NCBI RefSeq assembly: GCF_044704955.1
Contig: NW_027254201.1
Span: forward strand, 5,332,001-5,396,000
Reading direction: 5' to 3'
Origin: Pristiophorus japonicus
Taxonomy: Eukaryota
DNA length: 64,000 nucleotides
Of this stretch, positions 17,111-23,477 are shown one piece after another. The notes beneath the pieces are model-generated. The model was not told the DNA's origin. It saw only the letters and a program-made list of their open reading frames with translations, and did no database searches. The first letter of the stretch is position 1. Every line of letters begins with the position of its first letter. Position numbers and translations under genes: made by a program.

Positions 17111-17796
17111 TGTTATCGGGAAATATTTTCCCATCGAGCAACGCACCTGCAGCATAATGTTAGAACTAACTATGTAACTGTAGTATTAAAAGTGTGTGTA
17201 CATTTGATGAAGATGGGTGCTCGTGGTTCAGCAAAGCCACAAGGGATTTCTGCTAGCAGAAAGAGACGGCATTCCTAGTTACTGATGTCTGTTGTTTCTC
17301 ACACATGAATAAACATGAGTTCTGCAGATATCCCGAATCAACGGGCTTTCAGGCTTCAGACTAGACGTCCTGGTTCATGTTAGAAGAAGACGACCTACGA
17401 AAATGATTAAGATAAGGAAACTGCCCAAATACAGCACCCAAGGACAGTAAGATAAGGGAGGTCTGGAACATATCACAAGACCATGAATAATCCTTTGCAA
17501 CACATGAGGAAATAACGCAGTCATCTAATGTTTAGAGACCACTTCTATTGATCTATTTGAATCTATATGTAATCTACAATCAATATGATTGGATAGTGTT
17601 CTGCTGAAATGGACTGATGTAGCAGTAGTAAACTGTTGCAAAACATATAAAAATGCATGAAACCCTTAGTTCAGCGGAGAGAGGTAACTGGACGCACCAG
17701 TGGCATCATTTCTCCGCCGGCGTAACAAAATCGTATTGATGTATGGACTGACCCTGAGTGACGAGTGATTCTTGGAAGGCTGCATTCGTGCTAACA
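17111..17796 (+). repeat. 5' LTR (686 bp)
   Basis: TGTTAT...CTAACA; colinear with 22790-23477; TATA-like catataaaa at ~17644. Confidence 0.92.
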
Positions 17797-17797
17797 A

Positions 17798-17815
17798 TGG
17801 CGTCACAAACAGGAC
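17798..17815 (+). promoter_or_regulatory. Primer-binding site complementary to a tRNA-Ser(CGA) 3' end
   Basis: TGGCGTCACAAACAGGAC is a 16/18 match to TGGCGTCACGAACAGGAT, the complement of the vertebrate tRNA-Ser-CGA end (...ATCCTGTTCGTGACG-CCA) as I recall it. Confidence 0.8.
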
Positions 17816-18009
17816 ATTGCAGAGGCCGTTGGGAATCCCCTGCATAATCCAGGTGAGTATTGCCAGTAGATCCCGTGGGGATGGGACCAGGTGGTTCCAG
17901 AGGCAGATGCATTATCCACACTGTAAGGAGGGTCGGACCAACAATCAAAACGGTAGAAGGGAGTCGTAAGGAGACATAGAGCGCTGCGGGAATAGCACTC
18001 TTGTGACCG

Positions 18010-20885: not shown

Positions 20886-22649
20886 ATGGAATCACCGTGG
20901 CCACTTCAGTTCTGTAGCATGATACTGGTGATCTCGACACTCATACAAGCATCAGATAACCAGAATGGACTACGGGGGATACAGCAAATGCAGGAAAGGC
21001 ACACTTACCCGAACTATGGGATCTTGTTTAACTTAACTGATGGATAATGTATCCCAGCAGCCAAGGACAGGAGCGAGGACAGAACTTATGTTAACGCATG
21101 AAATTGTGCCTGTTCTGATCAATAGTTCGGGCATGCAAATGCCGGAGTATTGTGCAGAACAGGCAAGGAAGATGTATAGTGTATTAAGTAAGGTTGTAAT
21201 GCGGCAGGCTGCCAATGCCATGGGTGCCAGTAGGTTCCGAGGACAAGAGCAGGTGCATAGGCATAAGACGGGAATAATTAATGACGCTGCTACCGGCTTT
21301 AATATCGGGACCTCCATAGTAAACTCATTGGATATAAAAGGGCTGACCGAAAATGTGGAACAACTTAAACGGGTGATGAGGGAAGTGTTAGAGCGGGCAG
21401 AGCAGAATCACAAAGACCAAGCCGACTTAGGAAGGGAAGACATGGAGATACAGTTAGATGGAATTTCAATTATCGAGACACATGCCAAAACAATTAATCG
21501 TCTAATTGACAAAGAAAAGGAAGATGCCGGAAAGCTCCGACAAGGGCAAGTCTGTCACGCTCATGATTTGTGGATGGTGGGACAGGTACGACACAACCTC
21601 GATCAGATCCACAAGGGGGATGTACCATACTGGATAGACAGCTCACATCTGGCTCAGCTAGCCAAGCTGAAGTTGACACTGGATAACTGCACGCTGAAGG
21701 GACTGACCAGAGCATACTCAGCGATCCCAAACAGCCAAATTGGCACAGCTGCGGTAGGGGGATTGTCTTGATGATACCCATAGTCACTCGAGACTCAGGT
21801 ACATTTCCACTTTATCAACTAGAGAATCTCGGGGTCATATGCGACAATACCTCCCTCCGTTATGACTGAACCGCAGACTCCGCTATCCATAGAGATAACA
21901 CGCTATTCGGCGTCCCCCTGACAGGGTGCAAACAAAGGGGCGAGATCACGGTGTGCCCCCACCCAGTGGGACAGGGAGAAATAGATGAGTGATCTATTAA
22001 TCTCACCGATGGATGCGATCGGGAAATGATTACTGCCCCTACACATTTTGCCTGGGCCGGGAACGGAGGCAAAGGGAGATACTGTGTCTCCACCACAGAA
22101 CACTCACGTCAGTATAACGTGTTGCAATGCCAAATCCCGTAACCAAACAACTGCTTTATATCCCTATCGCCCGTTACTATAGGGCAAGCCCGCATTATCC
22201 AATTTAGACGGCGAGGTACCGAAATCATTGATGCTGTCGATCAACTCCATGATCGCCTGCAGGACTATGACGAGGCCCCTATTCCCCATTTAGCAGAAGT
22301 ATGAAGGGAACTAAGAATCAGAGTCGGACAGTCTGTTGAACTCTACCACTAATTACGGACAAATAGTGAGATACTGGAGAAAGATTCCGACACAGAGCTG
22401 CAGGATGAGAGTTGGTGGAGGAGGGTTGGGAACTGGGGGTTGAATGTCAACATCCACCCTTGGATTCGAATTATATCACATATACTTTTCGGAATAGAGC
22501 TAGTCCTAGCGTTAGCATGGGGAGTCATGGTTTGCCGCTCGTGCAGACATTATGCACAACAACGGAGGTTTAACACCTGAGCTCAGATAAGCAAGGACGT
22601 TCGTGTGACAGGCGAAATGGGGGATTCGAACTATATTAATTTGGTCTAA
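20886..22649 (+). pseudogene. env: Envelope glycoprotein of class I fusion, F-like layout (~585 codons reconstructed), disrupted
   Basis: Signal MESPWPLQFCSMILVISTLIQA; IVPVLIN..MPEYC..Y; degenerate furin site RHKT/GIINDAATGFNIGTSIVNSLDI at about residue 128; heptad repeat; Cys-rich region; HR2; ESWWRRVGNWG; TM IISHILFGIELVLALAWGVMVC; stops and frameshifts at ~21045, ~21760 and later. Confidence 0.8.
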
Positions 22650-22789
22650 AACAACTGGGACTCCTGAAATCGCGTGACTGGCCAGCACGTCAAAGCATGG
22701 AGCACCGGGTGATACAAAAACATAAAATAACATAAATTAATATCGGTTTCAGGGGGCTATGACGATTCCGTTTACCGAAAATGGGGGAT

Positions 22790-23477
22790 TGTTATAGATA
22801 AAGATTTTCCCATATTGATCAACGGCACCTATAGCATAATGTTAGAACTAAATATGTAACTACAGCATTAAATGTGTGTAAAATGTATAAAGATGGCTTC
22901 TCGTGGTTTAGCAAAGTCCCAAGGGATTTCAGACAGCAGAAAGAGACTGCATTGATAGCTCTTGATAACTGATGTTTCTCACACAGGAAAACAAAGGAGC
23001 TCTGCAGATGTCCCTAATCGTCGGGCTTTCAGGCCTCACACAATAAGTCCTGGTCCATGTTCGAACAATTCGACTCTGCATCAGGATTAAGATAAGGAGA
23101 CTGCCCAGAGACAGCACCCAAGGACAGTAAGATAAGGGTAGGCCCAGACCATGTCACAAGACCATCAATAAACCTTAGCAACACATGAAGCAATCACGCA
23201 GTCACCTAAAGTTGAGAGACCAATTCTATATGGTCTATTCGAATCTATATGTAATCTGTAATCAATATGATTGGATAATGTCCGGCCGAACTGGGCTGAT
23301 GTAACAGTAGTAAACTGTTGTAAAACCTATAATAATCCATGAAACCCTTTGTTCGGTGGAGAGAAGTACCTGGACCCACCAGTGGAATCATCTCTGCACC
23401 AGCGGAATAAACCGTTTTGATTTCTGGATCGACCCTGAGTGACTAGTGATTCTTGGAAGGTTACATTTGCACTATCA
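22790..23477 (+). repeat. 3' LTR (688 bp)
   Basis: Follows gaaaatggggga; TGTTAT...CTATCA; AATAAA at 23406; diverged from the 5' LTR (roughly 75-80% identity by eye). Confidence 0.92.

Follow-up and report, generated by a model that had tools for sequence, protein, structure and literature searches.

A decayed env-bearing element of the shark Pristiophorus japonicus as a probable non-autonomous derivative of an SnRV-like endogenous retrovirus with a predicted paramyxovirus F-like envelope

The question raised by the locus considered here is how an element having the ends of a retrovirus and a single broken gene came to be spread through a genome, and from which retroviral lineage its ends and its gene were taken. 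The element lies at 17111-23477 of a 64,000-nucleotide stretch of the Pristiophorus japonicus genome (assembly GCF_044704955.1, contig NW_027254201.1, positions 5,332,001 to 5,396,000 of the forward strand; hereafter the window). It was originally predicted, from the letters of the window only, to be an env-only element with long terminal repeats (LTRs), carrying an envelope of lokiretrovirus type and mobilised in trans. Comparison with its relatives across the 5.9 Gb genome leads us to a modified answer: the window copy is quite probably a decayed non-autonomous replacement derivative of an SnRV-like endogenous retrovirus (ERV), mobilised in trans, with env as a passenger and with env and LTRs repeatedly swapped for those of its helpers. 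The parts of the element, together with a second copy in the window, are as follows.

17111..17796, plus strand: 5' LTR, 686 bp, TG...CA ends, 81.7% identity to the 3' LTR
17798..17815, plus strand: primer-binding site (PBS) for tRNA-Ser(CGA), 16 of 18 bases as in the 3' end of the genomic tRNA-Ser(CGA) called by ARAGORN
17816..18305, plus strand: leader homologous to that of complete proviruses, 97-98% covered at 74% identity by the old complete copies L067 and L069
17853, plus strand: donor-like CAG/GTGAGT, read from the sequence, with a presumed splice function
18306..18449, plus strand: gag 5' stub (tblastn, Gag residues 8-84, 42% identity, E 1e-8)
18450..20755, plus strand: A-rich non-coding filler of about 2.3 kb, 38% A, no pol match, common to env-only and gag-less copies
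20756..20784, plus strand: predicted splice-acceptor-like site before env (branch-point and pyrimidine-rich)
20886..22649, plus strand: remnant of env, broken, for a predicted F-like (class Ib) Env, the fold being based on the relative P0003
22777..22788, plus strand: polypurine tract (PPT), at the matching position in relatives
22790..23477, plus strand: 3' LTR, 688 bp, TG...CA ends, no target-site duplication (TSD) with the 5' flank
3305..4735, plus strand: a further, truncated member of the old subfamily to which the main copy belongs (3' env, PPT and beginning of an LTR)

The paired LTRs (compared over 695 columns), the Ser-type PBS and the PPT of the original prediction were all recovered, and so was the env remnant, which is interrupted by frameshifts and in-frame stops while retaining a signal peptide, RHKT at 21259-21270 as a decayed cleavage site, heptad and Cys-rich regions and a transmembrane (TM) segment at about 22470-22535. 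The interval between PBS and env had been described as some 3 kb of A-rich non-coding DNA standing for gag-pol. It is A-rich indeed, and translated search found no pol homology in 17816-20885, but its beginning (17816-18449) is made of leader, likely the packaging region, and gag stub, the filler proper being shorter. The filler holds no long open reading frame, and all that was found of decayed gag-pol is the stub and a second, weak Gag-like patch at 20503-20619 (E 0.003).

The search with the longest open piece of env returned 15,472 candidates, the best 150 of which were scored (69-100% identity), and that with 1.1 kb of filler returned 3,490, with the best 40 scored (86-100%); these totals are not copy numbers. 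Layout was read for 36 loci, namely every fourth of the top 150 env matches from row 9 onward, a sample biased toward relatives of the window's env. Env and filler without pol were found in 28 of the 36, pol in six (one of them, L091, scored from a reverse transcriptase match 11 kb upstream) and neither arrangement in two. Clean TSDs of 4-5 bp border seven of the 11 dispersed env-only copies with parsable ends, which therefore integrated independently. Since the filler is common to 28 of 36 copies at independent sites and is absent from the complete proviruses examined (0% coverage), being present in env-only and gag-less forms, it must have been amplified as a family.

The autonomous partner, sought genome-wide, is represented by complete gag-pol-env proviruses bearing this env. 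In one relative, the same env is preceded by protease, reverse transcriptase (RT), RNase H and integrase. This RT gave access to ten loci, of which six are young complete proviruses, two old broken complete ones and two gag-less copies with filler. The young complete proviruses (L051, L053, L055, L057, L059 and L065) have LTRs 99.6-100% identical and 5-bp TSDs; gag of 469-472 codons, one TGA and pol of about 1,180 codons follow each other in one frame (gag-stop-pol) and precede env, which is open in five of the six, while their PBS is a Ser-type sequence other than the window's. That some complete copies have identical LTRs suggests that the lineage was active in the germ line of this species not long ago. 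In the gag-less copies L061 and L063, with LTRs 99.8-100% identical, the filler replaces gag, pol is open over 1,045-1,131 codons without its start and env has lost 148 nt; recombination of the filler with the present helper continues. A helper for mobilisation in trans thus exists in the genome.

As to the lineage of this helper, its Gag carries two CCHC knuckles (zf-CCHC twice), and its Pol has a tether, RT_RNaseH and RNase_H domains, integrase and a GPY-type end (MLVIN_C, E 0.003). Like that of SnRV, the helper RT has the word QYTWTRLPQGFH.SP.IFH and reads TRLPQGF. In a midpoint-rooted tree of 55 rows chosen from 140, with no lokiretrovirus, foamy or ERV-L rows among them, the shark RT falls into a 27-row clade (support 99/94) with P0020, which by reading is the SnRV RT bar one residue and trimmed columns, class I forming a separate clade (100/99); identity to P0020 is 42% versus 39% to Rauscher murine leukemia virus. 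The RT grouping, the zinc finger and the GPY-type integrase C-terminus are all as in SnRV-like ERVs (clade Huo): zinc knuckles and such integrase ends are noted for SnRV-related ERVs (PMC4299795), which are known in a cartilaginous fish (PMC4422223). ERV4 of Repbase, which the 5-bp TSD would fit, was rejected on account of the zinc knuckles and the GPY-type end, and a scan of IMG/VR with the helper RT gave one weak locus. Cis ends of an autonomous ERV, no pol, many TSD-bearing insertions and a helper in the same genome describe a non-autonomous ERV, and judged by its sequence the element would have arisen from an SnRV-like shark ERV as a non-autonomous replacement derivative.

Whether env was kept as a working gene, as had been proposed, may be judged from its lesions. 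The window env lacks 368 nt at about codon 65 (near 21,100), out of frame; in dispersed relatives a deletion of about 356 nt, with a stop behind it, has the same position, and most of the N-terminal module is thereby taken out. A shared env-inactivating lesion is present in 23 of the 28 env-only copies, across independent insertions: the deletion of about 356 nt in 12 (ten out of frame, one with a stop at the junction, one unread), a 91-nt deletion in two and a stop in the signal peptide in nine. The shared lesions predate amplification, therefore a working env was not needed for spread, and the window subfamily spread with the reading frame of its env broken. The ratio of non-synonymous to synonymous substitution (dN/dS; pairwise NG86, codons 193-640, 60 bootstraps), a check suggested along with the prediction, was 0.77 (0.61-1.07) for duplicated window copies, 0.39 among young env-only copies with the stop, 0.30 between young env-only subgroups and 0.10 for young complete copies. 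Recombination with helpers might explain the low values of env-only copies. Env-only and pol-bearing copies are interleaved in the env tree, and four pol-bearing ones (L117, L119, L120 and L121; pol linkage of this set is by an RT match about 3 kb upstream, seen directly in three of 20 loci) are separated from a young env-only copy by a dS of 0.07-0.11. The filler branch between old and young families is about 0.02, env differs at about 30% of bases and the LTRs are mostly unalignable; breakpoints were detected in five of 11 hand-picked triplets versus 0 of 2,000 permutations. The simplest reading would be that helper env and LTR were captured again and again in the course of co-packaging. Contigs of four runs of unrecorded kind cover 30 of 30 bins of a young env-only copy; the predicted leader-env splice joint was not among the 15 of 75 joints listed for these contigs, which come under two organism codes.

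Natural open frames show the native organisation of Env: they run to 707 codons, place RxKR at 242-245 and leave a subunit of about 460 residues beyond the cleavage. The N-terminal subunit of about 128 residues and the early, F2/F1-like cleavage that had been taken from the window copy as native are consequences of the subfamily deletion. The relative P0003 (Mustelus, 714 residues) was folded with 40 sequences (pLDDT 65), and Foldseek search of the PDB with this model found human parainfluenza virus 3 F (E 1.5e-10) and respiratory syncytial virus F (E 2.6e-10), all 41 rows listed being paramyxo- or pneumovirus F. VIA placed Newcastle disease virus F on top (Z 9.8, rmsd 17.5, 330 aligned), with foamy Env 8rm0/8rm1 (Z 6.8-7.3) and many generic helical matches besides; BFVD matches include the Env of the walleye viruses WEHV-1 and WDSV (ranks 5 and 9) and feline foamy Env. 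The structure searches thus bear out the proposed F-like rather than gamma/beta-type nature of Env. The F-like part of the model spans residues 174-565. The approximately 140 residues preceding it, with nine Cys in the local Env, make up the N-terminal module, which folded alone (pLDDT 51, best Z 4.0) shows no nameable fold and found no match in ESM Atlas, where whole Env gave F-type clusters at 0.91-0.92, a recognition below threshold.

At the level of sequence, Pfam and PDB searches with env pieces and intact Env gave no useful match, PF00523 was matched neither by intact Env nor by 23 relatives, and one relative matches Baculo_F weakly (E 0.001); a PF00523 search of the genome gave no match, but the controls were silent too. 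Signal peptide, RxKR site, fusion peptide, coiled coil, TM segment and F-like architecture are all present. CX6CC and LQNR, which would mark a gamma-type (class Ia) Env, are both absent; the absence of LQNR had been noted correctly, whereas that of CxxC applies to the damaged copy, intact Env having one CxxC in the module deleted there. From these models the helper Env is predicted to be a class Ib fusogen resembling paramyxo/pneumovirus F, extended at its N-terminus by a Cys-rich module that may serve in receptor binding. The nearest named proteins of the family (nine matches) are all from sharks: Pristiophorus at 86-93%, Heterodontus, Mustelus and Chiloscyllium at 52-66%. Remote relatives from Chiloscyllium and frogs (P0054, P0070, P0078 and P0079) keep the F-like core behind a different N-terminal module that looks Ig-like (in P0079 by a V-set match at E 0.045, in P0054 by its source name), which suggests that attachment modules are swappable. 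A Mantella cluster counts 16 members, mostly of 677 residues, and in two database proteins (P0071 and P0089) Env fragments are fused to F-box or cadherin domains, probably as gene-model artefacts.

Taken as a mechanism, the reading that we prefer runs as follows. Most of gag and all of pol would have been replaced by the A-rich filler, with the cis signals retained, that is, LTRs, Ser PBS, leader and gag stub, env with the 3' untranslated region, and PPT. The RNA may be packaged via leader and gag stub by the Gag-Pol of complete proviruses, reverse-transcribed from a tRNA-Ser primer and inserted by the helper integrase, as TSDs and shared cis ends suggest; env would be expressed by splicing. 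Co-packaging would permit swaps of LTR and env tracts with whichever helper is active, in agreement with the mosaicism and interleaved trees, while Env appears to be a passenger in most copies, the window subfamily having spread with its frame-breaking deletion and the window insertion having been copied within a segmental duplication. Several points weigh against this reading. Five of the 28 env-only copies (one unread at the start) have no shared lesion; young env-only copies that share the signal-peptide stop have a dN/dS of 0.39 (0.31-0.53), below the value for window copies, and this speaks most strongly against env as a mere passenger; and no breakpoint emerged from either triplet in which the window copy is the child. 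The Env model has a pTM of 0.44, is a predicted monomer and reaches Foldseek TM-scores (query length) of about 0.3, and the RT tree behind the SnRV-like assignment was built from rows other than lokiretroviruses and foamy viruses. The trans-mobilisation of a non-autonomous multicopy family, claimed from the start and supported here, is itself something that we infer.

Among other explanations, at least one env-only lineage might have supplied working Env in trans, as part of a two-component virus or as a receptor-blocking env, with the dead subfamilies derived from it. The low dN/dS among env-only copies (0.30-0.39; net B1-B2 dN 0.002, dS 0.027), their retained donor- and acceptor-like splice sites, the open, signal-like env start kept in L050 and L073 and the co-existence of gag-less pol-bearing forms with deleted env would all suit such a donor. 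Yet inactivating lesions are shared by 23 of the 28 copies, complete proviruses encode their own Env, and the env of the four pol-bearing copies named above is as near to that of young env-only copies as these are to each other; at least one stop occurs in all 28 sampled env-only copies, though age alone gives the same. We therefore hold an env donor to be unlikely. Rather improbable, in our estimate, is also a multi-part retrovirus, with complete, gag-less and env-only genomes co-packaged and complementing each other, the filler kept while LTR and env were swapped over helper invasions, and an F-like Env selected without gag-pol.

The lokiretrovirus type assigned originally, with the element as an env counterpart of the gag-only BHIKHARI, is largely refuted and has in our opinion very little chance of being correct. 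In its favour are the F-like fold and RxKR site of Env, lokiretrovirus Env being reported as F-like (PMC7947760), and the tether plus RNase H in Pol, a combination common to all retroviruses. Lokiretroviruses are further marked by an RT from the sister clade of all other retroviruses, an integrase related to CGIN1 and an Env that resembles PF00523 in sequence. Against it, the helper RT is SnRV-like by motifs and tree, reading TRLPQGF instead of the RCPFG found in seven of eight lokiretrovirus RTs (compared by reading, in part of the supplement of PMC7947760); the helper Gag has two CCHC knuckles; no member of the Env family matches PF00523; and an F-like fold belongs to foamy Env as well (PMC11468914), walleye epsilonretrovirus Env models matching too. 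Four cartilaginous genomes, among them that of Chiloscyllium punctatum, which carries this env, are without the mark that lokiretrovirus-positive genomes appear to bear in PMC7947760. The smc-like gene of some lokiretroviruses has no Pfam match in helper Gag, and their RT word as an exact DNA pattern gave 0 genome matches. The least probable reading, an ordinary internally deleted provirus among many independent deletions, could appeal to the surviving leader and gag stub and to the many deletion variants in the family, but hardly accounts for a filler found in no complete provirus examined and common to 28 of 36 copies at independent sites.

The window insertion itself is, on its sequence, old; its age is given here in relative terms, two published substitution rates differing tenfold. 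The second, partial copy noticed originally is 81% identical to it, 82-85% to old relatives and 69-70% to young ones. Chimaerism of two subfamilies was tried as the source of the approximately 82% LTR identity and rejected: the two sit together, on long stems, in a single unresolved group, so that age or a locally accelerated decay is enough, although recombination between two copies of one subfamily may have contributed. No TSD was found at the element (one of five bases matches). Its left flank is a class I-type ERV (15240-17110, minus strand; MLVIN_C E 4.5e-10) with CxxC and LQNR..LD words in env, as described before, which is cut off at the 5' LTR; since it does not resume on the right, the right target site was presumably lost by later rearrangement. 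What follows the element is presumably a CR1-type LINE (long interspersed nuclear element) fragment. The insertion with its flanks (13650-23477; L031-L036) recurs with 94-96% identity in six or more further places that lie on small or unplaced contigs; these copies share the window's flanks and are therefore duplicates of one insertion by segmental duplication. Elsewhere in the window are tandem arrays of 80-bp and 56-bp units (2962-3300 and 13467-13753), an inverted pair at 2246-2937 / 13777-14459 (70% identity), an RT-RNase H-like remnant of another LTR element (8905-9375, plus strand), two LINE-like copies 74% identical (9364-10730 and 35285-36630) and, at 38612-64000, an 18-bp tandem repeat that extends over about 25 kb, with an extreme strand skew (GC skew near -0.66) and many long open frames.

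The closest analogues appear to be bovine ERVK[2-1-LTR] D-type elements and recKoRV. In cattle, a defective form of about 6.8 kb with a poorly alignable 2.7-kb central fragment exists beside a competent form of about 10 kb; the defective form dominates (85%, as compared with 28 of 36 in the shark sample), recombination with the competent form is pervasive and trans-complementation is proposed (PMC10924933). The bovine elements are of ERVK class in a mammal, with mobilisation measured, while the evidence for the SnRV-like shark elements is genomic only, and the shark filler lineage, unlike the bovine one, spans two very different helper env types. In recKoRV, a non-coding middle of foreign origin is framed by parts of an active retrovirus, namely its LTR, leader and env end; TSDs are present and the helper integrase is required, but the middle is an identified retroelement, PhER, and only the 3' end of env is kept (PMC6112702), whereas the shark elements keep nearly all of it. 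SnRV, clade Huo and CmiERV lineage I resemble the helper in RT motifs and tree position (PMC6001957, PMC4422223, PMC4299795); SnRV is a distant relative only, and the F-like fold described here is that of the shark family. Lokiretroviruses and BHIKHARI share with the family an F-like Env with RxKR and the existence of single-gene non-autonomous derivatives (PMC7947760; 10.1101/2024.03.25.586437), differing in RT clade and Gag and in the intact gag of BHIKHARI as opposed to the mostly dead env of the shark family. Among class Ib fusogens (paramyxo/pneumovirus F, foamy Env, coronavirus spike), residues 174-565 of the model align with F at 9-15% identity; the additional shark module is N-terminal, a spike-like placement, whereas that of foamy Env is inserted (PMC11468914). 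A search of the accessible literature, which did not extend to Repbase and Dfam, turned up neither this family nor an F-like Env in the SnRV-like clade, though supplements could list related shark ERVs.

Within the fish lineage, the element may be regarded as the equivalent of bovine D-type ERVK and recKoRV, with one point added, namely the sign that a single defective lineage persisted when the env and LTR type of its helper changed. An F-like Env, published for lokiretroviruses and foamy viruses, is now predicted in an SnRV-like shark lineage with remote relatives in frogs; therefore F-like Env alone is no basis for calling a lokiretrovirus, and together with the walleye epsilonretrovirus matches this finding favours the scenarios set out in PMC7947760 that make F-like Env an ancestral trait of retroviruses. 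The chief value of the locus lies mostly in this F-like Env of an SnRV-like lineage and in a defective family that appears to have switched helpers, rather than in the decayed window copy.

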